DNA of 21,959 nucleotides from a virus (taxonomy: Duplodnaviria > Heunggongvirae > Uroviricota > Caudoviricetes): positions 1-21,959 of the IMG/VR virus record IMGVR_UViG_3300045988_117647, one strand, 5' to 3'. Each line of letters starts with the position of its first letter. The first letter of the stretch is position 1. The notes below the pieces were generated by a model that saw only the letters and a list, made by a program, of their open reading frames with translations, was not told where the DNA came from and did no database searches. Shown here in pieces: positions 55 through 19,804 of the stretch. Position numbers and translations under genes: made by a program.

Positions 55-198
55 TACAACGGGAAAAAATTTACGTATCCGGTCGCTGATGAGTGGAGTT
101 GGTTTTATTGTTATTCAGAGCAATAAACATCTGATTTAATTTGTTGCATAATAGTAAAATTGCTGTTTATCTACATGTGGTAACTATTGATAATTATG

Positions 199-226
199 TT
201 GCTAATAATGTGTGCAAATTTATACT
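199..226 (+). promoter_or_regulatory. Possible sigma70-like promoter for the island-1 ORF (-35 TTGCTA 199-204, 16-nt spacer, -10 TATACT 221-226)
   Basis: Hexamers read directly; the implied leader to the ATG at 243 is very short and would overlap the AAGGTG RBS, so the call is weak. Read-through from IS1 is an alternative. Confidence 0.2.
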
Positions 227-242
227 GAAAAAGGTGAAAACG

Positions 243-2075
243 ATGAATGATATCTTTGTTCTTACAAGGGAAGAGCTTGAAACACTAGATTATAGTGTTT
301 TTATGCATATACCAGTTACATTTCATGCACATAAAATAAAAAAATATCTGGATGGGATTGCTGAATCATCAGAAAACCCCAAAGAGAAAAAATTAGCATC
401 TCTTTTTGGTATGCTATATAGTTTCAATTTGCAAGTTGTTAACAACACTCCATCATTTGAACCCCAAATGATTTGGGGTAATAAAAGATCAATATTGCCT
501 GAAGATTTTGATGAGCAGGTGAATGATTGTCTTTTATATGTTTCTCAAAAAATAACCAATCCATTTTTGTTATCAAGAATATATGATGTTGTTTGGTGTA
601 ATAATCGGAAAAATAAAGACGTGGCAATTAAAGCAATTGATTCCTATGCTGAAATGCTAAATATAGCAATTGAAAGACTAATAATAAAAAACGAAAGCAT
701 GGATGAAAGTGATTTAAATTGCTTTATTTTTGCTCGTGATTATATTGCTAGGGCTTTGCACATTAATAAAATGGTCTACCCTAGAAAATCAGAAGGAAAC
801 ATGGCGATTAAAAATGCCATTCATTCTCTTTATAGTATTCAAAATGAAAGATTAATCTTTGAAGGTTTCAATAATTTGACTTGGTTTATGGTGCGTGATT
901 TTGATGGGGATAATCTGCAGTATGCGGAAAATGCTGAGAAGATGGCTGAGCAGCATAAAGATAAAAAATATTATGATGCTGTAAAATCACTTTATATGAC
1001 AAGTGCAGTTATTTATGAAAAAAATGGTGAGTCTGAACGTGCCAAGAGATGTAAACTGGCATCTGCAAATATTACTATTAAAGTTGCAACAGATCGACCT
1101 GATAATATGGGTAAGATCTCTTGGTTAAGAACAGCTATCTCTGAATTAAGACAGTACGGTGGTGATAGCCAACAGATAGAAGATTTAAAGGAACAACTTG
1201 CTAATTTGAGAGAAGAAGTAAGGAGTGAATATGTCACTTTAAGCCATTCTATTGATATTAGTGACTTGGTTGCTGAAAGTGAAAAAAAACTGACGGGGCG
1301 TTCTTTGCCCGATATATTCAAAGTTTTAATGCGTGAAACACCGATTGAAAATATTGAAAGCATGAGGGAGCAAGTTTTAAGATTATCAGAAAAAAGTTTA
1401 TTCTCTAGTTTTGTTGGAACAGAAATTAATGATGAGAGTGGGCGTAAGGTATATACAATCCCGCCGTTGGATAATAAAAAAGATATGAGTGATGATGTTG
1501 TTATTGATCAATATCTAAGAAATTTCGAGATTACTCATAAGATTTTTGTAAACGGTGTCTTTGAACCTGCTCGCTATGTACTTTCTCAAGAACATGGCTT
1601 GACGTTGTCAACATTCGTTAAATTAGTTACAACTAGTCCAATTGTCAAGCCGGAGTTTAGGGAGATTTTTAATTTGGGCTTTTACAAATTATGGCAGGGA
1701 GATTACATCAGTGCAGCTTATCTTTTAATACCACAAATGGAAGGTATGGTTCGTTATTATTATGAGCTTAGTGGAAAGGATGCTACTAGATATTTGGATA
1801 AGGGATTAGAGGAGTCAACAAGTATTTCTCAGCTTCTAGATAAATGCAGAGATGATTTGGAAAGTATCTTTTCTAAGAATCTTGTTTTAACTATCGATGT
1901 TCTTTTTAATAGAAAGAGTGGGGCAACCTTAAGACATAAATTAGCACATGGTAATTTATATACTAATGCTTGTTACGATGAAACAACGACATATGCATGC
2001 ATCCTGATTTTCTTTCTGTGTGCTTATCCTCTCCTACCATATTTTGATACTGTATTTGAACAGGGCTCTGTTTGA
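243..2075 (+). CDS. Hypothetical 611-aa AT-rich cargo protein; candidate anti-phage or abortive-infection protein with C-terminal R-x4-H-G (HEPN-like) motif RHKLAHG at nt 1932-1952
   Basis: Long uninterrupted ORF (track 141-2075) in visibly AT-rich DNA. I take the ATG at 243 (MNDIFVL...), preceded by AAGGTG at 231-236, as the start. No Walker A/B or TOPRIM motif seen, so it is not an Old-type ATPase. Position is the old/tin locus of P2. Confidence 0.8.
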   Translation: MNDIFVLTREELETLDYSVFMHIPVTFHAHKIKKYLDGIAESSENPKEKKLASLFGMLYSFNLQVVNNTPSFEPQMIWGNKRSILPEDFDEQVNDCLLYVSQKITNPFLLSRIYDVVWCNNRKNKDVAIKAIDSYAEMLNIAIERLIIKNESMDESDLNCFIFARDYIARALHINKMVYPRKSEGNMAIKNAIHSLYSIQNERLIFEGFNNLTWFMVRDFDGDNLQYAENAEKMAEQHKDKKYYDAVKSLYMTSAVIYEKNGESERAKRCKLASANITIKVATDRPDNMGKISWLRTAISELRQYGGDSQQIEDLKEQLANLREEVRSEYVTLSHSIDISDLVAESEKKLTGRSLPDIFKVLMRETPIENIESMREQVLRLSEKSLFSSFVGTEINDESGRKVYTIPPLDNKKDMSDDVVIDQYLRNFEITHKIFVNGVFEPARYVLSQEHGLTLSTFVKLVTTSPIVKPEFREIFNLGFYKLWQGDYISAAYLLIPQMEGMVRYYYELSGKDATRYLDKGLEESTSISQLLDKCRDDLESIFSKNLVLTIDVLFNRKSGATLRHKLAHGNLYTNACYDETTTYACILIFFLCAYPLLPYFDTVFEQGSV

Positions 2076-3450: not shown

Positions 3451-5222
3451 CAGTAAAACTCCAGAATGGTGGATGTCAGCGGGGTGCTGATACCGGCGGT
3501 GAGTGGCTCATTTAACAGGGCGTGCATGGTCGCCCAGGCGAGGTCGGCGTGGCTGGCTTCCTCGCTGCGGCTGGCCTCATAGGTGGCGCTGCGTCCGCTG
3601 CTGGTCATGGTCTTGCGGATAGCCATAAACGAGCTGGTGATGTCGGTGGCGCTGACGTCGTATTCCAGACAGCCACGGCGGATAACGTCTTTTGCCTTGA
3701 GCACCATTGCGGTTTTCATTTCCGGCGTGTAGCGGATATCACGCGCGGCGGGATAGAACGAGCGCACGAGCTGGAACACGCCGACACCGAGGCCGGTGGC
3801 ATCAATTCCGATGTATTCGACGTTGTATTTTCCGGTGAGTTTGCGGATGGATTCAGCCTGGGTGGCAAAGTCCATGCCTTTCCACTGGTGACGCTCAAGT
3901 ATTCTGAATTTGCCACCGGCCACCACCGGCGGTGCCAGTACCACGCATCCGGCGCTGTCGCCACGGTGTGACGGGTCGTAACCAATCCATACCGGGCGGG
4001 AGCCGAACGGATTTGCGGCAAACGGCGCATAGTCTTCCCATTCTTCCAGCGTGTCGACCATGCAGCGTTGCAGCTCCTCGAACGGGAACACCGACGCCTT
4101 GTCGTCAACAAATTCACACATGAACAGGTTTTTAAAATCGTCGGCGCTGTTTTCGCGTTTAAGCTGCTCAATGTCGAACAATGTGCAGCCGCCTTTCAGG
4201 GCGTCCTCAATGGTGACAATCTGCCGCCACTGGCCGTCCGCACAGAGAAGCCCACCGGCAAGGGCGTTATGACTGACGTCGATTTCCACGCGTTCGGCGG
4301 CGCTGGCGCGTCCCCGGTTGAACAGTTCACCCGACCAGAACGGGTAGGCGTCGTGCGCCAGCGTGGACGGGGTGGAGAAATAGGTCGATCGCAGGTGACT
4401 CTGTGAGGCCATACCTGATGCCACCTTACGCAGCACCTGAAAATTCGGGATCCAGAAAATCTCGTCGACGTACAGGTCGCCGTTATGGCTCTGCGCGGTG
4501 TTGGAGTTGGTGCCGAGAAAAATCAGTTTTGCGCCGCTATTGCCCAGGACAATCGGGTCACCGGTCAGGTCAACGTCAACCAGCCGGGCAAAGGCGATGA
4601 TGTATTCGCGGAACACATACGCCTGCGTTTTACTGGCCGACAGAAAAATCTGGTTATGACCGGTTTTCAGGGCGCGCAGCAGCGCCTCGCGGGAAAAATA
4701 AAACGTCGCGCCAATCTGGCGGGATTTCAGGATATCGCGGATGCGGTGCTCAAGCCCGGCGCGATACCAGTGCAACTGATAATCGAAAGACTGCTCAAAG
4801 AAAATCTGCTCCAGCTTTTCGATGGCCTCGTCACTGAAAAAATTCTTTTTCGGTTTGCGCCGCCCGCCTTTGTTGCGGTTAGCGACGTTCGGATTAAGGT
4901 CTGCCTCGTTGCCGGTCTGGCTGTAGCGGTTGACCCGTGCCAGTCGTTCAATCTGGCGTCCCAGCAGGTCAATTTCCTTGAAGTCACCGCCGGTTTTCTG
5001 CGGTTTGATGATGAGCTGGGTCAGCCGCGCTTCCAGACTCATTTCGACACGGCTGATGGGGGCAACGCTGTCCCAGCCGTCGCGCTGTTTCCAGCTCTGC
5101 ACCGTCGGGCGTTTCATCTGCAACATGGCGGCAATCTGCGGCACGGAAACCCCCTGCCAGTACAGCAGCGCCGCCTGACGACGCGGGTCGTGTAAAAGAG
5201 TGGTGTCTGTGGTGATGGTCAT
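3450..5222 (-). CDS. P: Terminase large subunit (P2 gpP-like), 590 aa
   Basis: ORF track 3450-5252; start taken at the ATG at 5222 (MTITTDTTLLHD...) which has a GAGGT RBS and gives the P2 P length; upstream extension has no RBS. Confidence 0.9.
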   Translation of the reverse strand: MTITTDTTLLHDPRRQAALLYWQGVSVPQIAAMLQMKRPTVQSWKQRDGWDSVAPISRVEMSLEARLTQLIIKPQKTGGDFKEIDLLGRQIERLARVNRYSQTGNEADLNPNVANRNKGGRRKPKKNFFSDEAIEKLEQIFFEQSFDYQLHWYRAGLEHRIRDILKSRQIGATFYFSREALLRALKTGHNQIFLSASKTQAYVFREYIIAFARLVDVDLTGDPIVLGNSGAKLIFLGTNSNTAQSHNGDLYVDEIFWIPNFQVLRKVASGMASQSHLRSTYFSTPSTLAHDAYPFWSGELFNRGRASAAERVEIDVSHNALAGGLLCADGQWRQIVTIEDALKGGCTLFDIEQLKRENSADDFKNLFMCEFVDDKASVFPFEELQRCMVDTLEEWEDYAPFAANPFGSRPVWIGYDPSHRGDSAGCVVLAPPVVAGGKFRILERHQWKGMDFATQAESIRKLTGKYNVEYIGIDATGLGVGVFQLVRSFYPAARDIRYTPEMKTAMVLKAKDVIRRGCLEYDVSATDITSSFMAIRKTMTSSGRSATYEASRSEEASHADLAWATMHALLNEPLTAGISTPLTSTILEFY

Positions 5223-5395: not shown

Positions 5396-6250
5396 ATGGC
5401 AAAAAAAGTCTCAAAATTCTTTCGTATCGGCGTTGAGGGTGACACCTGTGACGGGCGTGTCATCAGTGCGCAGGATATTCAGGAAATGGCCGAAACCTTT
5501 GACCCGCGAGTCTATGGTTGCCGCATTAACCTGGAACATCTGCGCGGCATCCTGCCTGACGGTATTTTTAAGCGTTATGGCGATGTGGTCGAACTGAAGG
5601 CCGAAAAGATTGACGATGATTCGGCGCTGAAAGGCAAATGGGCGCTGTTTGCGAAAATCACCCCGACCGATGACCTTATCGCGATGAACAAGGCCGCGCA
5701 GAAGGTCTATACCTCAATGGAAATTCAGCCGAACTTTGCCAACACCGGCAAATGTTATCTGGTGGGGCTGGCCGTCACCGATGACCCGGCAAGCCTCGGC
5801 ACGGAATACCTGGAATTCTGCCGCACGGCAAAACACAACCCCCTGAACCGCTTCAAATTAAGCCCTGAAAACCTGATTTCAGTGGCAACGCCCGTTGAGC
5901 TGGAATTTGAAGACCTGCCTGAAACCGTGTTCACCGCCCTGACCGAAAAGGTGAAATCCATTTTTGGCCGCAAACAGGCCAGCGATGACGCCCGTCTGAA
6001 TGACGTGCATGAAGCGGTGACCGCTGTCGCTGAGCATGTGCAGGAAAAACTGAGCGCCACTGAGCAGCGCCTTGCTGAGATGGAAACCGCCTTTTCCGCA
6101 CTTAAGCAGGATGTGACTGACAGGGCGGATGAAACCAGTCAGGCATTCACCCGCCTGAAAAACAGTCTCGACCACACCGAAAGTCTGACCCAGCAGCGCC
6201 GCAGCAAAGCCACCGGCGGTGGCGGTGACGCCCTGATGACGAACTGCTGA
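5396..6250 (+). CDS. O: Capsid scaffolding protein (P2 gpO-like), 284 aa
   Basis: ORF track 5330-6250; start at ATG 5396 (MAKKVSKFF) with AGGA RBS; length and order match P2 O. Confidence 0.85.
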   Translation: MAKKVSKFFRIGVEGDTCDGRVISAQDIQEMAETFDPRVYGCRINLEHLRGILPDGIFKRYGDVVELKAEKIDDDSALKGKWALFAKITPTDDLIAMNKAAQKVYTSMEIQPNFANTGKCYLVGLAVTDDPASLGTEYLEFCRTAKHNPLNRFKLSPENLISVATPVELEFEDLPETVFTALTEKVKSIFGRKQASDDARLNDVHEAVTAVAEHVQEKLSATEQRLAEMETAFSALKQDVTDRADETSQAFTRLKNSLDHTESLTQQRRSKATGGGGDALMTNC

Positions 6251-14088: not shown

Positions 14089-15954
14089 ATGAGCACAAAA
14101 TTCAGAACCGTTATCACCACTGCCGGTGCAGCAAAGCTGGCAGCGGCAACCGCACCGGGAGGGCGGAAGGTCAACATTACCACGATGGCCGTCGGGGATG
14201 GCGGTGGTAAATTGCCTGTCCCGGATGCCGGACAGACCGGACTTATCCATGAAGTCTGGCGACATGCGCTGAACAAAATCAGCCAGGACAAACGAAACAG
14301 TAATTATATTATCGCAGAGCTGGTTATTCCGCCGGAGGTGGGCGGTTTCTGGATGCGAGAGCTTGGCCTGTACGATGATGCGGGAACGTTAATTGCCGTG
14401 GCGAACATGGCCGAAAGTTATAAACCTGCCCTTGCCGAAGGCTCAGGGCGTTCGCAGACCTGCCGCATGGTCATCATCGTCAGCAGTGTGGCCTCAGTGG
14501 AGCTGACTATTGACACCACAACGGTGATGGCAACGCAGGATTACGTTGATGACAAAATTGCAGAACATGAACAGTCACGACGTCACCCTGACGCCTCGCT
14601 GACCGCAAAAGGTTTTACTCAGTTAAGCAGTGCGACCAACAGCACTTCTGAAACACTGGCTGCAACGCCGAAAGCGGTAAAGGCCGCCTATGACCTTGCT
14701 AACGGGAAATACACTGCACAGGACGCCACCACAGCGCGAAAAGGTCTTGTCCAGCTCAGTAGTGCCACCAACAGCACGTCTGAAACGCTCGCCGCAACAC
14801 CAAAAGCGGTAAAAGCAGCATATGACCTTGCTAACGGGAAATATACCGCACAGGACGCCACCACAGCGCGAAAAGGCCTTGTTCAGCTCAGTAGCGCCAC
14901 CAACAGTGATTCGGAAACGCTGGCAGCAACACCAAAAGCGGTGAAGTCTGCCTATGACAATGCTGAAAAACGTCTTCAGAAAGATCAGAACGGTGCGGAT
15001 ATTCCTGATAAAAGATTATTCCTGCGCAATATTGGTGCAACAAATTCAACAACCATGTCTTTTAGTGGTGGTACAGGATGGTTCAGGCTGGCAACTGTAA
15101 CCATGCCACAGGCCAGTTCCGTGGTTTACATAAGTCTGATTGGTGGTGCTGGATATAATGTTAACTCCCCTATGCAGGCTGGTATATCTGAACTTGTTCT
15201 TCGTGCGGGAAATGGAAATCCAAAAGGTCTTACTGGTGCGTTATGGCGACGGACATCGGTTGGATTTACTAATTTTGCATGGGTGAATACATCCGGTGAT
15301 ACCTATGATGTTTATGTTGAAATAGGTAATTACGCCACAGGTGTTAATATTCAGTGGGATTATACCAGTAACGCCAGCGTAACGATTCATACATCGCCAT
15401 CTTATACAGCGAATAAACCAACAGGTCTTACAGATGGAACTGTATATGTAATTTACAGTTCGCACATTAAACCGACTGCTGCTGATGTTGGGGCGTTGTC
15501 ATTATCTGGAGGTCAATTGAATGGTGCACTGGGCATCGGAACATCCAGTGTTCTTGGCGGTAACTCAATTGTTTTGGGTGATAATGACACGGGCTTTAAA
15601 CAAAATGGTGACGGTAATCTGGATGTTTATGCTAATAACGTTCATGTTATGCGCTTTGTCTCCGGTAGCATTCAAAGTAATAAAACCATAAATATTACGG
15701 GTCGTGTTAATCCCACAGATTACGGTAACTTTGATTCCCGCTATGTCCGGGATATCCGGCTTGGTGGTGCTGCCACATACAAACCTGCGAACAATGGCAT
15801 GACATGGACACATCAGGCACCGTCCGGGTGTGTATATTCCGGCATTATTATTCAGGATACCGGCTCAAACTCTGCCGATAACATTGGTGGCGTATATTAC
15901 AGACCGGTGCAGAAATACATTAACGGGACATGGTATAACGTGGCGCAGGTATAA
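14089..15954 (+). CDS. H: Tail fibre protein (P2 gpH-like but shorter, 621 aa), with internal tandem repeats and an AT-richer C-terminal part
   Basis: Position after I; GAGG RBS; 44-aa repeats containing SATNS..ETLAATPKAVK, which resemble the phage tail-fibre repeat motif; composition changes after about 15000. Confidence 0.85.
   Translation: MSTKFRTVITTAGAAKLAAATAPGGRKVNITTMAVGDGGGKLPVPDAGQTGLIHEVWRHALNKISQDKRNSNYIIAELVIPPEVGGFWMRELGLYDDAGTLIAVANMAESYKPALAEGSGRSQTCRMVIIVSSVASVELTIDTTTVMATQDYVDDKIAEHEQSRRHPDASLTAKGFTQLSSATNSTSETLAATPKAVKAAYDLANGKYTAQDATTARKGLVQLSSATNSTSETLAATPKAVKAAYDLANGKYTAQDATTARKGLVQLSSATNSDSETLAATPKAVKSAYDNAEKRLQKDQNGADIPDKRLFLRNIGATNSTTMSFSGGTGWFRLATVTMPQASSVVYISLIGGAGYNVNSPMQAGISELVLRAGNGNPKGLTGALWRRTSVGFTNFAWVNTSGDTYDVYVEIGNYATGVNIQWDYTSNASVTIHTSPSYTANKPTGLTDGTVYVIYSSHIKPTAADVGALSLSGGQLNGALGIGTSSVLGGNSIVLGDNDTGFKQNGDGNLDVYANNVHVMRFVSGSIQSNKTINITGRVNPTDYGNFDSRYVRDIRLGGAATYKPANNGMTWTHQAPSGCVYSGIIIQDTGSNSADNIGGVYYRPVQKYINGTWYNVAQV
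14611..14964 (+). repeat. Three tandem copies (two complete, third partial) of a 132-bp coding repeat inside H
   Basis: Copies start at 14611 and 14743 and are near-identical at DNA level; the third (from 14875) diverges after about 90 bp. Confidence 0.85.
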
Positions 15955-15957
15955 TTT

Positions 15958-16485
15958 ATGCAGCATTTAAAAAATATTACGGCGGGTAATCCAAAAACGG
16001 TTGAACAATATCAATTGACAAAGGGCTTTGATGTTGTCTGGTTTTTTACAGAAGATGGTAAGAACTGGTACGAAGAACAAAAGTATTTTGCTGATGACAC
16101 GATAAAAATAGCGTACGACAAAGATAATATCATCCGCTATGTGGAAAAGGATGTGACAGCTATCAGACCGGATGGATTAAGTGTGGTTGAAGTGGCGGAT
16201 ATTACTGCTAACCGACGTGCGGATATTTCAGGGGGCTGGATGTTTAAGGACGGCAAAGTGATTAAACGCATTTATACGGCAGAGGAATTACAGCAGCAGG
16301 CAGAAATTCGGAAAGCCAGACTTCTTGCAGATGCTGAATCCGTGATTTTGCCGCTGGAGCGCGCGGTCAGACTGAACATGGCAACAGAGGAGGAGCGCAC
16401 ACGGCTGGAGGCTTGGGAACGCTACAGCGTTCTGGTCAGTCGTGTGGATCCTGCAAATCCTGAATGGCCGGAAATGCCGCAATAA
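15958..16485 (+). CDS. G: Tail fibre assembly protein (P2 gpG-like), 175 aa
   Basis: Length and position immediately after H. Confidence 0.8.
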
Positions 16486-16520
16486 GTTGTATGAACTCTG
16501 GTGTGAGCTTACATATCTAT

Positions 16521-16560
16521 GGCACAGAGTAAAGCCTAATCTGACAGTCCGCTCTGTGCC
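16521..16560. repeat. Inverted repeat GGCACAGAG-n22-CTCTGTGCC at the boundary between G and AT-rich island 2
   Basis: Perfect 9-bp arms read directly; no T-run follows on either strand, so it is not called a terminator. Confidence 0.4.
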
Positions 16561-16738
16561 AAAAGCGGGCGTTGATCACATGGGCTATGCTAACCCATTA
16601 TAACAGTGTAACAGAGCTACCCACGATTACTCCCGGCCTCTAAAGTTTGCTACATAATAAAGAATCATTCCCTTTAATCTGATCTTAGCGGTATAGTATC
16701 TGGTGACCAGTAAGATAATCACCGACACTACAATCATG

Positions 16739-16766
16739 TTGATTTGCATTGTGTTTAGTCTAAAAT
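16739..16766 (+). promoter_or_regulatory. Candidate sigma70 promoter for the island-2 genes (-35 TTGATT 16739-16744, 16-nt spacer, -10 TAAAAT 16761-16766)
   Basis: Hexamers read directly, about 50 nt upstream of a strong RBS (AAGGAGG 16803-16809) and the ATG at 16816. Confidence 0.35.
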
Positions 16767-16815
16767 TGTGGTGCGAAAAGACCAATGAAAGTTATTGATA
16801 ATAAGGAGGAATCAA

Positions 16816-17598
16816 ATGTCAGGAATAAGATGGTTGGATAAAAAAGATTTAATTCTTAAAGGAATAAATGAAGGCACCTACCCAGAATCAGTTTACAAGT
16901 TCAGAACTATAGATAAAGCCAGTGATATTCTTCAAAAAAAGAATTTTACTTTTCATCAGCGGAAAATTTTAATGATCCATTTGATTGTATGCTGGATGAG
17001 GAAAAAGAATACTCTTTATCAGACTTTAATTGTTGGTTATATTTATATCAGAATGGATTAACCAAGAAGGCAAAGCAGAACTTAATAGATGTGTATAAAG
17101 AAAACAGCCAAGCATTTAATGATCTAGTTAAAAATATAAAAACAAAAGCCGTCAATGCCCATGGCATTTTATCGCTATCTAAAACTAATGAAAATATTCT
17201 TTTATGGTCTCATTATGCGGAGAACCATACCGGAGTTGCTATAAAACTCAATATTGCTAAGGATCCAGAGTTCTTTATAACCCCCCAAAACATAGTATAT
17301 GAAGCAATATATTCCATTAAATTATCTTAGAGACTCTAAAAAATCAATACTCGACACACTCTCTACGAAATCAATGGATTGGAATTATGAAGAGGAGATT
17401 AGAGTTTATAAAAGTAATATTGGAGCCTATAAGATTAAGCCAGAGGCAATAACTGATGTTTTTTTTGGTTTGAAAACGCTGGAACAGGATATTGCAAAAA
17501 TCAAAAATATATGTAGTGAAAATGGTCTAAGCCATGTGAAGTTTCATCGGGCTGAAAAAAAATATGGAGAATTTGCGCTACGTTTTAATCCTATTTGA
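16816..17598 (+). pseudogene. DUF2971-like gene interrupted by two compensating frameshifts (frame change within the A7 run at 16934-16940, then back between 17296 and 17330)
   Basis: Three ORF pieces (16795-17061, 16989-17330, 17299-17598) join into one DUF2971-like product: ...YKFRTIDKASDILQKK / EFYFSSAENFNDPFDC...LLWSHYAENHTGVAIK... / ...SMDWNYEEEIRVYKS. The first and third pieces share a frame. Family assignment is from recalled motifs. Confidence 0.6.
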
Positions 17599-17684
17599 CT
17601 TTTCTATTTAGTAGTTAAATGATAGTGCATTACGAGCCAATTAAATTTAATTCTATGGTTGTGTAGACAATAAAAGGTAACTAG

Positions 17685-18170
17685 ATGAATCAAGATGAGT
17701 TAAAAAATTTTTGTGTTGATGTGCGCGAAGCACTTGAGAAGATGACCAAAAAAGATCATTCACGGCTGTCATCTTTTGGAAATTCGAACTTTCCAGTGGG
17801 ATGCTGCGGAGATACATCGAAACTGCTTGCTTATTTACTTTATCAGCAATTCGGGATAGTCTCTGAAGTACTCGCAGGATGTTACTATGAATCTGATCAT
17901 AAGTCCCCCGCCAGCGGTCTTTCAAACGGTAATTCACATGCTTGGCTTGTCGTGGATGGAATGATTGTTGATTTGACTGCAGATCAGTTCAACGACCGGG
18001 GATATAACAATCTTCCCGTCATGATTACATCAGACACTAGGTTTCATGACCTCTTTGCCAATCGTAATGCCTTGTTTCAACCTTCTCAAGGTAATGAAAT
18101 TATTCTACCTGATATTCTAAAAATGACAGCATCACATGTGCAGCAAAGGCTTAAAGAGCGAGGTTGGTAA
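17685..18170 (+). CDS. Hypothetical 161-aa protein with Cys-His-Asp arrangement (C40/C41 in GCCGD, H85 in SHAWLVVDG, D96/D100 in IVDLTAD) suggestive of a transglutaminase-like or papain-like cysteine peptidase fold
   Basis: Clean ORF in AT-rich DNA with AAAGG RBS; the motif HAWLVVDG-IVDLTAD resembles the His-Asp segment of transglutaminase-like domains. Inference only. Confidence 0.65.
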   Translation: MNQDELKNFCVDVREALEKMTKKDHSRLSSFGNSNFPVGCCGDTSKLLAYLLYQQFGIVSEVLAGCYYESDHKSPASGLSNGNSHAWLVVDGMIVDLTADQFNDRGYNNLPVMITSDTRFHDLFANRNALFQPSQGNEIILPDILKMTASHVQQRLKERGW

Positions 18171-18487
18171 TACGGGTGCAGCAGAATCTAAAGCTGATAC
18201 TTAAAATTATATAGGAAGAGCATAAACTTATCCTAAATCTGGCTGTAATAGATCCTTTCATATATCGGCCAGATTAATATGAAGTAATCCAAATTAGTGT
18301 CTGAAAATATAATCAGCTCCATAACAATAGATTTATCGCTTAAAAATAACGTCAACATGAGGGTAGAAAACATCCCTAAAGATAAGTCTGGTCTAACCTT
18401 TGCTCCTCGCTCAAAGCAGACTGTCAGAATTGATAGCGTTTGGGCTATGTAAATTGTCAGTCGGAAAATGAGTGAGTACAAATCAGG

Positions 18488-18515
18488 ACAGGCGGGCGAA
18501 TTGCCCGCCTTTTCT
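18488..18515 (+). terminator. Rho-independent terminator (GGCGGGC-GAAT-TGCCCGCC followed by TTTTCTTTATC), plus-strand orientation
   Basis: Hairpin and T-run read directly; lies about 320 nt after the 161-aa gene and about 100 nt before FI. Confidence 0.6.
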
Positions 18516-18613
18516 TTATCTGTTGTTTCATCCACTGACCAGTCAGGTCAAATAGCGTCTCATGCTCTGCACAACAGAAAATAGCTGCACCCATTAACCA
18601 CGGAGTTAAACGG

Positions 18614-19804
18614 ATGAGTGACTATCATCACGGCGTGCAGGTGCTGGAAATTAACGACGGCACCCGTGTCATTTCCACCGTATCCACTGCCATTGTCGGC
18701 ATGGTCTGCACGGCCAGCGATGCGGATGCGGAAACCTTCCCCCTCAATAAACCTGTGCTGATTACCAATGTGCAGAGCGCAATTGCAAAGGCCGGTAAAA
18801 AAGGCTCGCTGGCGGCATCGTTGCAGGCCATCGCCGACCAGTCAAAACCGGTCACCGTTGTCGTGCGTGTGGAAGACGGCACCGGCGACGACGAAGAAAC
18901 GAAACTTGCGCAGACCGTTTCCAATATTATCGGCACCACCGACGAAAACGGTCAGTACACCGGACTGAAAGCCCTGCTGGCGGCGGAATCGGTAACCGGT
19001 GTTAAACCGCGTATTCTCGGTGTGCCGGGGCTGGATACCAAAGAGGTGGCTGTTGCACTGGCATCAGTCTGTCAGAAGCTGCGCGCTTTCGGGTATATCA
19101 GCGCATGGGGCTGTAAGACCATTTCCGAGGTGAAAGCTTACCGCCAGAATTTCAGCCAGCGTGAGCTGATGGTCATCTGGCCGGATTTCCTCGCATGGGA
19201 TACGGTCACCAGTACCACCGCCACCGCGTATGCCACTGCCCGTGCACTGGGCCTGCGCGCTAAAATCGACCAGGAGCAGGGCTGGCATAAAACGCTGTCC
19301 AATGTCGGGGTGAACGGTGTTACCGGCATCAGCGCATCTGTATTCTGGGATTTGCAGGAGTCCGGCACCGATGCTGACCTGCTGAACGAGTCAGGTGTCA
19401 CAACGCTGATTCGCCGTGACGGTTTCCGCTTCTGGGGTAACCGTACCTGCTCTGATGACCCGCTGTTCCTCTTTGAAAACTACACCCGCACCGCGCAGGT
19501 GCTGGCCGACACGATGGCTGAGGCGCACATGTGGGCGGTGGACAAGCCCATCACCGCAACGCTGATTCGCGACATCGTTGACGGCATCAATGCCAAATTC
19601 CGTGAGCTGAAAACAAACGGCTATATCGTGGATGCGACCTGCTGGTTCAGCGAAGAATCCAACGATGCGGAAACCCTCAAGGCCGGAAAATTGTATATCG
19701 ACTACGACTATACACCGGTGCCTCCTCTCGAAAACCTGACCCTGCGCCAGCGTATTACCGATAAATACCTGGCAAATCTGGTCACCTCGGTTAACAGCAA
19801 TTAA
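18614..19804 (+). CDS. FI: Contractile tail sheath protein (P2 FI-like), 396 aa
   Basis: Length and synteny with P2 FI; GGAG RBS. Confidence 0.9.
   Translation: MSDYHHGVQVLEINDGTRVISTVSTAIVGMVCTASDADAETFPLNKPVLITNVQSAIAKAGKKGSLAASLQAIADQSKPVTVVVRVEDGTGDDEETKLAQTVSNIIGTTDENGQYTGLKALLAAESVTGVKPRILGVPGLDTKEVAVALASVCQKLRAFGYISAWGCKTISEVKAYRQNFSQRELMVIWPDFLAWDTVTSTTATAYATARALGLRAKIDQEQGWHKTLSNVGVNGVTGISASVFWDLQESGTDADLLNESGVTTLIRRDGFRFWGNRTCSDDPLFLFENYTRTAQVLADTMAEAHMWAVDKPITATLIRDIVDGINAKFRELKTNGYIVDATCWFSEESNDAETLKAGKLYIDYDYTPVPPLENLTLRQRITDKYLANLVTSVNSN

Follow-up and report, generated by a model that had tools for sequence, protein, structure and literature searches.

A predicted SseI-like cysteine enzyme encoded by a single mobile gene in a P2-like prophage and in diverse mobile elements

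IMG/VR virus record IMGVR_UViG_3300045988_117647 is a 21,959-nucleotide stretch of caudoviricete DNA, which is called the window here. It represents the late region of a P2-like prophage, as judged from Pfam matches on the flanks and from the map of open reading frames (ORFs). Within it, a gene for a 161-amino-acid (aa) protein, referred to as gene X, is located at positions 17685-18170 (+ strand) next to a DUF2971 gene, and this locus raises the question of whether X encodes a functional enzyme and whether that enzyme works with its neighbour or alone, in defence or in offence. A preliminary description of the DNA had predicted a Cys-His-Asp catalytic arrangement for X and had regarded it as a possible effector or regulator of a module with the DUF2971 gene, or as a phage counter-defence factor. 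The analysis presented here points to a predicted SseI-like cysteine enzyme that is mobile by itself.

Gene X starts with ATG at 17685 and ends with TAA at 18168-18170. A Shine-Dalgarno-like AAGGT can be read at 17674-17678 (+ strand) with its GG separated from the ATG by 7 nt, in agreement with the ribosome-binding site of its own that had been claimed for this gene. The three conserved-looking blocks that had been pointed out, GCCGD (residues 39-43), SHAWLVVDG (84-92) and IVDLTADQF (94-102), were located by script and are indeed conserved across the family. The ratio of nonsynonymous to synonymous substitutions (dN/dS) between X orthologues is 0.17-0.58, with values of 0.52-0.58 inside the clade in which DUF2971 and X are paired versus about 0.2 against the Klebsiella orthologue. 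Because of the conserved motifs, the size of the family and these ratios, X is a real coding gene under selection. RefSeq annotates it as “transglutaminase-like domain-containing protein”, and PHROGs places it in phrog_26734 without functional annotation; what was already known is thus the fold class hinted at by the RefSeq name and the family as an unannotated PHROG. An antisense ORF of 94 aa (17653-17937) overlaps the conserved + strand gene and has no RefSeq annotation.

The family of X is large and is spread over many phyla. An exhaustive profile search covering 1.84 billion representatives found at least 1,704 clusters (50% identity) at E<=1e-3, of which 254 remain at E<=1e-10. None of the curated models in Pfam and NCBIfam reaches its threshold with the window protein. 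Nearly all relatives are stand-alone proteins of 140-180 aa, and the N-terminal extensions of four fused members (P0096, P0103, P0171 and P0063) gave no significant Pfam match. For related loci, we searched with a 24-sequence subset of the 127-sequence family alignment, and the relatives' loci belong to Proteobacteria, Firmicutes, Actinobacteria, Bacteroidota, Planctomycetota, Nitrospinota and Saccharimonadia. This size and spread of the family, together with its relation to SseI and DUF2026, the triad assignment and the single-gene mobility described below, are additions of the present analysis.

Conservation was examined at two depths in order of divergence. In 24 Enterobacterales homologues (45-99% identity), C40, C41, H85, D96, D100 and Q101 are all invariant. 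In a wider set of 172 family sequences reaching down to about 25% identity, for which percentages refer to aligned, non-gap positions, P37, C41, H85, W87, D96 and Q101 are found at every aligned position; none of the 170 sequences aligned at C41 has another residue there, the other two having gaps, and D96 is kept in 172 of 172. R14, F36, T98, D100 and F102 each exceed 90%. The preliminary description had left the choice between C40 and C41 and between D96 and D100 undecided, and only one member of each pair stood. C40 (codon 17802-17804, + strand), which adjoins C41, was rejected as the nucleophile, since it is conserved at 85%, with A, W or S in its place in some members, versus 100% for C41, and since the alignment with SseI described below also selects C41. 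D100 (codon 17982-17984, + strand), located within IVDLTADQF, was likewise rejected as the triad acid, with 95% conservation versus 100% for D96 and with an SseI alignment that places it on H235.

The predicted fold is consistent with this choice. An AlphaFold2 (AF2) model of X built from the homologue alignment has a predicted local distance difference test (pLDDT) score of 90.7 and a predicted template modelling (pTM) score of 0.88, and in this model the helix 41-56 starts exactly at C41, H85 lies on the strand 84-90, and D96 ends the strand 93-96. Three features by which the papain-like/transglutaminase-like superfamily (clan CA fold) is recognised are found in the model: a nucleophile at a helix N-terminus, the order Cys-His-Asp with His on a strand and Asp on the adjacent strand, and an overall fold resemblance to solved members of the superfamily. 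Foldseek supports the top two matches weakly (SseI, E 0.09). The best match of the 127-sequence family profile among the sequences of the Protein Data Bank (PDB) is also SseI (hmmsearch, E 0.066), and hhalign of the family against SseI gave a probability of 75% and a P value of 2.5e-5 in the same register as hmmsearch. In this register C41, H85 and D96 of X correspond to chain positions 42, 80 and 95 in the SseI 137-322 construct, which are C178, H216 and D231, the triad published from the crystal structure (PMC3498931), and Q101 falls on Q236. A family member, P0127, additionally matches Atu2299 with an E value of 0.005 over the H.W...D motif (SHAWIECDGWIVDITADQF / FHCWVEADGWAIDFMAPAF), and precomputed matches to Tox-PLDMTX (PF15645) exist for two distant family members. 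By contrast with the family profile, phmmer of X and a profile of its close homologues against PDB sequences gave noise or nothing, and the search of viral folds in BFVD with X gave weak, unnamed matches only.

Because C41, H85 and D96 align on C178, H216 and D231 of SseI, we take C41 (codon 17805-17807, + strand), at the N-terminus of helix 41-56, as the predicted nucleophile, H85 (codon 17937-17939, + strand), which is invariant and is aligned with the His of both SseI and Atu2299, as the predicted general base, and D96 (codon 17970-17972, + strand) as the predicted triad acid. As judged from these alignments, X appears to keep the full C41-H85-D96 triad, with C40 and D100 as conserved neighbours, and Q101 (codon 17985-17987, + strand) is a further invariant position. 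Model and profile alignments thus agree with the papain- or transglutaminase-type arrangement originally proposed, and structure prediction, Foldseek and profile comparison together returned a papain-like fold and no confident match to a non-enzymatic family. We consider the assignment of X as an enzyme to be well supported, and its affiliation, as read from sequence comparison, would be with the branch of the papain/transglutaminase fold that includes SseI, the C3 domain of Pasteurella multocida toxin (PMT; Tox-PLDMTX), DUF2026 and YunG.

In a published classification of papain-like enzymes (PMC10318531), Tox-PLDMTX/SseI and DUF2026 are discussed alongside the PMT C116 peptidase and protein glutaminase. 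X differs in some respect from each named relative. With the catalytic domain of SseI (SrfH) of Salmonella and PMT C3 of P. multocida, X shares the alignment of Cys, His and Asp, but these are parts of a type III effector and a large exotoxin, whereas X is a 161-aa stand-alone protein with neither translocation nor secretion domain, found in phages and mobile genetic elements (MGEs) of free-living bacteria; its model comprises the catalytic fold and nothing else, and its His-Asp hairpin is shorter, with 11 residues versus 15. X itself has no PF15645 match at E<=1, and P0063 reached 16.6 bits versus a threshold of 26.1. The likeness implies neither a deamidase activity nor a G-protein target for X. 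Against DUF2026 (PF09641) X scored 12.8 bits, below the 25-bit threshold; DUF2026, represented by Atu2299 (PDB entry 2HLY), has about 205 aa and reportedly carries Ser where the nucleophilic Cys is expected (PMC10318531), whereas the Cys of X is invariant. YunG (PF24585) is the sole Pfam model matched by all 23 close homologues, in every case below threshold and over the His-Asp hairpin at residues 80-111; X scored 22.5 bits (E 1.3e-4) over these residues only, below the 27-bit gathering threshold, and only the C-terminal half of the YunG model aligns with X. A literature search for functional information on YunG found none. Transglut_core (PF01841), the model of protein glutaminase, TglA and LapG, matched weakly in only two of the 23 homologues (E 0.087), and neither a pro-peptide nor a calcium site nor a periplasmic signal is present in X, in contrast to these proteins. 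Searches of X against NCBIfam gave no match, and those against PADLOC-DB v2 gave none at E<=1.

From the predicted triad the following chemistry may be proposed. X would be a functional, cytoplasmic, single-domain cysteine enzyme, in which D96 orients H85 and H85 deprotonates C41 at the helix N-terminus. C41 would then attack an amide carbonyl to give a thioester, which water or an amine would resolve, and the outcome would be glutamine deamidation, transglutamination, or cleavage of a peptide or isopeptide bond on a protein substrate. The invariant Q101, together with R14 and W87, probably forms the oxyanion or substrate site. As a horizontally mobile accessory gene, X would covalently modify an opponent's protein in a conflict between phage and host or between elements, and in the P2-like prophage it would travel with a DUF2971 gene for an abortive-infection protein resembling ADP-ribosyltransferases (ARTs) and yet be independent of it.

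The loci of X homologues show how the gene moves. The Klebsiella homologue (71% identity; loci L093 and L094) is in an integrative and conjugative element (ICE), about 350 bp upstream of a gene for a 500-aa reverse transcriptase; that of Pantoea cypripedii adjoins IS66 and McrBC; that of Providencia (L098, 2550-4468) is located 50 bp downstream of an ApeA (HEPN) gene, beside a prophage integrase. In Pantoea B623 the gene is behind a prophage lysis cassette, in Citrobacter it is among unrelated small ORFs of a lambdoid prophage, and in Pseudomonas megaplasmids and a Pseudomonas phage record matching that locus it is between an integrase and a giant nuclease. In Vibrio, small ORFs are each flanked by attC/VCR-like repeats of about 125 nt, with 5-9 copies per array (L012, 1-10345; L013, 1-4676), and X is a single ORF (L012, 4989-5456) between the repeats at 4837-4975 and 5454-5578, inside arrays of 7-9 copies; the Vibrio homologues are chromosomal integron cassettes, an arrangement that the window gene does not have. 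X was also seen frequently to adjoin single-gene toxins of abortive-infection type. The neighbours were compared by all-against-all BLAST and Pfam counts, and a conserved operon partner was ruled out, as no neighbour family occurs in more than three of about 75 loci (about 560 neighbours); no neighbour is conserved across 80 diverse genome loci. Since the link with DUF2971 vanishes beyond one clade (described below), no neighbour recurs and X exists as an integron cassette, X is an autonomous functional unit, a single-gene cargo of phages, plasmids, ICEs and integrons.

Two further settings bear on the direction of the conflict, and both are additions of this analysis. The first is the head and packaging region of phages, where a small terminase subunit gene neighbours X nine times in viral contigs and genomes together. 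In at least five Acinetobacter-type loci (L117, L119, L120, L127 and Acinetobacter L040), X follows a Mu G-like gene and precedes that of the head maturation protease. Gene sizes are compatible with an order that starts with the large terminase, the portal and the Mu F-like and Mu G-like (Phage_tail_S) genes, continues with X, and then has the genes of the head maturation protease and the decoration protein and an ORF the size of a capsid gene; family matches of the Mu-like head module were directly confirmed for L120 and L117 only. In Pseudomonas Mu-like phages this gap between G and the protease is occupied by anti-CRISPR genes (PMC3993853).

The second setting is polyvalent proteins, large multidomain proteins whose effector domains have been described (PMC5512222); X is a stand-alone ORF in the window, and its domain is shared with two such proteins. 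One, P0097 of the representative library (3,200 aa), has NTP_transf_2, InPase and ART-PolyVal domains, with ParB-like motifs read from its sequence, and contains three X domains, one of them right after the ART. Iyer et al. (2017, PMC5512222) list InPase as a domain specific to polyvalent proteins of the phage type, for which packaging and injection are predicted. The other is a large protein of L133, a 191-kb viral contig, in which an N-terminal X domain is followed by ART-PolyVal domains. In a text search of Iyer et al. (2017) the words “papain” and “transglutaminase” did not turn up, and papain-like peptidases are not among the four peptidase superfamilies named there. The domains of P0097 are separated by at least eight copies of a repeated motif, (S/N)L(L/R)x(R/A)W(R/K)(R/K)RA (RW..RRA linkers). 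These motifs could be processing sites, and the three papain-like X domains might be processing peptidases; no zincin metallopeptidase was detected in P0097 by Pfam.

We therefore read X, with confidence that is about evenly balanced, as an autonomous SseI-like protein-modifying enzyme of biological conflict that leans to the offensive side. This lean is given because X is small and has no sensor domain, is found in delivered polyvalent proteins and in the anti-CRISPR slot, and lies beside terminase genes. An offensive role, either host-modifying or counter-defence, falls somewhat short of an even chance in our judgement and is favoured over a defensive role, which appears rather unlikely.

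Several observations weigh against this reading. The position between G and FI in the P2-like prophage and the defence-gene neighbours suit a defensive role at least as well. NAT-type acyltransferases are also among the fold matches of X, which permits a small-molecule substrate. The closest fold match, DUF2026, reportedly has Ser for the Cys and is itself a family to which no function has been assigned. By tblastn, matches were found in only 3 of 50,697 deposited phage genomes. Finally, ART is the commonest protein-modifying domain in polyvalent proteins, and its adjacency to X could be due to chance.

The alternative that survives best is that X is a stand-alone superinfection-exclusion enzyme of prophages and other MGEs, which cleaves or deamidates a protein of the incoming phage or a host factor needed by it. 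It is favoured by the P2 accessory slot, by neighbours of abortive-infection type and by neighbours in defence islands. About 10% of the immediate neighbours of X in diverse genomes match PADLOC defence models; the matches among 124 immediate neighbours were to HEC-08, PDC-S31, PDC-S64, DUF3644, type II restriction enzymes, capH, PDC-M43B, GajB, SduA and a type I S subunit. The contacts with ApeA, McrBC and a reverse transcriptase, the Vibrio integron arrays and the elevated dN/dS among close relatives point in the same direction. Nevertheless, no PADLOC model matches X itself, which has neither a sensor nor a regulatory domain; its domain occurs in polyvalent proteins, one of which has the phage-type-specific InPase; and X also occurs among the head and packaging genes of phages, a place in which one would less expect a defence gene. 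We regard this explanation as unlikely, though it comes before the remaining ones.

Less likely still, and doubtful in our view, is that X is the second component of a two-gene DUF2971 defence system, in which it would regulate the ADP-ribosyltransferase toxin, activate or process it as a protease, or serve as its antidote. The upstream gene (16816-17598, + strand) is correctly described as DUF2971-like, since it matches both Pfam DUF2971 and PADLOC PDC-S31. In the literature DUF2971 is a predicted ADP-ribosyltransferase with DarT and AbiGi as relatives, and an operon of DUF2971 with a Tox-PLDMTX papain-fold gene is on record (PMC12522546), which is in favour of a two-component system. The order DUF2971-X with a gap of 78-86 bp is kept in E. 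coli P2 prophages, in a Serratia island beside an integrase and in a Pectobacterium ICE (L001, L003 and L091), and the low synonymous divergence (dS) of both genes between these three genera (0.25-0.46) indicates a recent joint transfer among the prophage, the island and the ICE. Both genes are present in all 12 E. coli genomes that carry the insert, and X stands beside ART-PolyVal domains in the two polyvalent proteins.

The pairing is, however, restricted to a narrow clade. DUF2971 is beside X only when the identity of X is at least 76%, and homologues at 71% identity or less are without it in Klebsiella, Pantoea, Providencia, Citrobacter, Pseudomonas, the Vibrio cassettes and 80 diverse loci; conversely, X is absent beside DUF2971 homologues whose identity is 43% or less. 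The module suggested in the preliminary description thus applies to this clade, and elsewhere the two genes occur apart. The consistent co-occurrence of partners known from two-gene DarTG-like toxin-antitoxin or defence modules is not seen, and X is no macrodomain. For Aristaios, a DUF2971 protein, abortive infection by a single gene has been validated in Lactococcus (PMC11381338), and the PDC-S31 model of PADLOC is likewise for a single gene. A toxin and its antidote within one polyvalent polypeptide would be implausible. Furthermore, X is intact in the window while its DUF2971 neighbour is frameshifted: in comparison with the intact 261-aa allele of E. coli NCTC9008, to which it was aligned, the window copy is split into three ORFs by the loss of one nucleotide at 16933 (A8 to A7) and of one TA (2 nt) from a TA repeat at 17295. 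The two frameshifts compensate each other and leave about 120 codons out of frame. The 7-kb alignment contains three gap openings (4 bases) in all, of which two (3 bases) are inside this gene, and the window copy is either a pseudogene or affected by homopolymer and dinucleotide sequencing errors.

A broader proposal is that the X family comprises widespread, previously unrecognised cysteine enzymes, delivered by MGEs or phages, which modify the host as counter-defence and work with ADP-ribosyltransferases. It is suggested by the recurrence of ART and X together, as the DUF2971-X pair in three genera and as fusions with ART-PolyVal in two proteins, and by the anti-CRISPR slot, and we consider it speculative and improbable as a whole. 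If it were true, X would deamidate, cross-link or cleave an immune or core protein of the host, alone or on an ADP-ribosylated target. The proximity of X and ART could reflect functional cooperation, and its recurrence suggests a two-enzyme logic.

An action on a small molecule, such as NAT-like acyl transfer or an amide synthase or hydrolase reaction, or a housekeeping role outside conflict, is very unlikely. The best matches (SseI, protein glutaminase, TglA, LapG and PMT) are protein-modifying enzymes, NATs are three-domain proteins of about 270 aa whereas X has 161 aa, and the MGE, phage and polyvalent-protein contexts indicate conflict. That X is a catalytically dead scaffold, as the reported lack of Cys in DUF2026 might suggest, or that the ORF is no gene at all, is hardly credible in view of the Cys, His and Asp that are invariant in 172 sequences, the 1,704 or more clusters, dN/dS below 1, the confident model and the RefSeq annotation.

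The preferred reading of X as a single mobile conflict enzyme leaves a family that occupies sites typical of conflict genes, i.e., prophage slots, defence islands, integron cassettes, the Mu-like anti-CRISPR slot and polyvalent proteins. With its clear and mutable predicted active site, X is a candidate for a single-gene defence factor or an enzymatic anti-defence factor. For the window itself the finding is a moderate one, namely that the enzyme fold had been predicted correctly for one accessory gene of a prophage.

The surroundings of X in the window are those of a variable insert. Upstream, the ORF order of portal, terminase, capsid, lysis, baseplate and tail-fibre genes is as usual for P2-like phages, and the insert is located between the tail-fibre assembly gene G (15958-16485; Pfam Caudo_TAP, 1.5e-33) and the tail sheath gene FI (18614-19804; Pfam). 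This region of about 2 kb (16550-18600) is distinguished by its composition, with 29-43% GC versus 50-60% in the flanks, and has two + strand genes, DUF2971 and then X. A comparison with 5,426 complete E. coli genomes gave matches to the flanks in 1,623, of which only 12 have the insert, and it is therefore variable cargo in a P2-like accessory slot, the slot between G and FI being one that we take to be a hotspot for antiviral cargo.

A consensus scan found sigma-70-like sites at 17595-17623 (+ strand; TTGACT-17-AATGAT), in the 86-bp gap before X, and at 16739-16766, before the DUF2971 gene; such sites were not enriched over shuffled sequences. The insert closes, ahead of the sheath gene, with a strong intrinsic-terminator-like hairpin at 18490-18510 (+ strand; 9 bp, 7 GC, T-run). 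It belongs to an interval of about 440 bp between X and the sheath gene (18171-18613), which is low in GC and apparently non-coding; an antisense ORF of 100 aa there (18233-18535) is unannotated in RefSeq relatives. A search of Rfam over 16400-18700 gave only a sub-threshold STnc150 match (19.5 versus 60 bits, E 0.25).

At the other end of the window, a 644-aa ORF at 141-2075 (+ strand) lies just upstream of - strand ORFs taken as portal and terminase genes from their size and position. It had no match among PDB sequences. Its place is presumably the other accessory position of P2-like phages, on the old/tin side, and the ORF may represent another gene for cargo or defence. Finally, the tail-fibre gene at 14089-15954 contains three tandem units of about 43 aa (…LSSATNSTSETLAATPKAVKAAYDLANGKYTAQDATTA…) at 14600-14960, which were seen as internal self-matches in BLAST.
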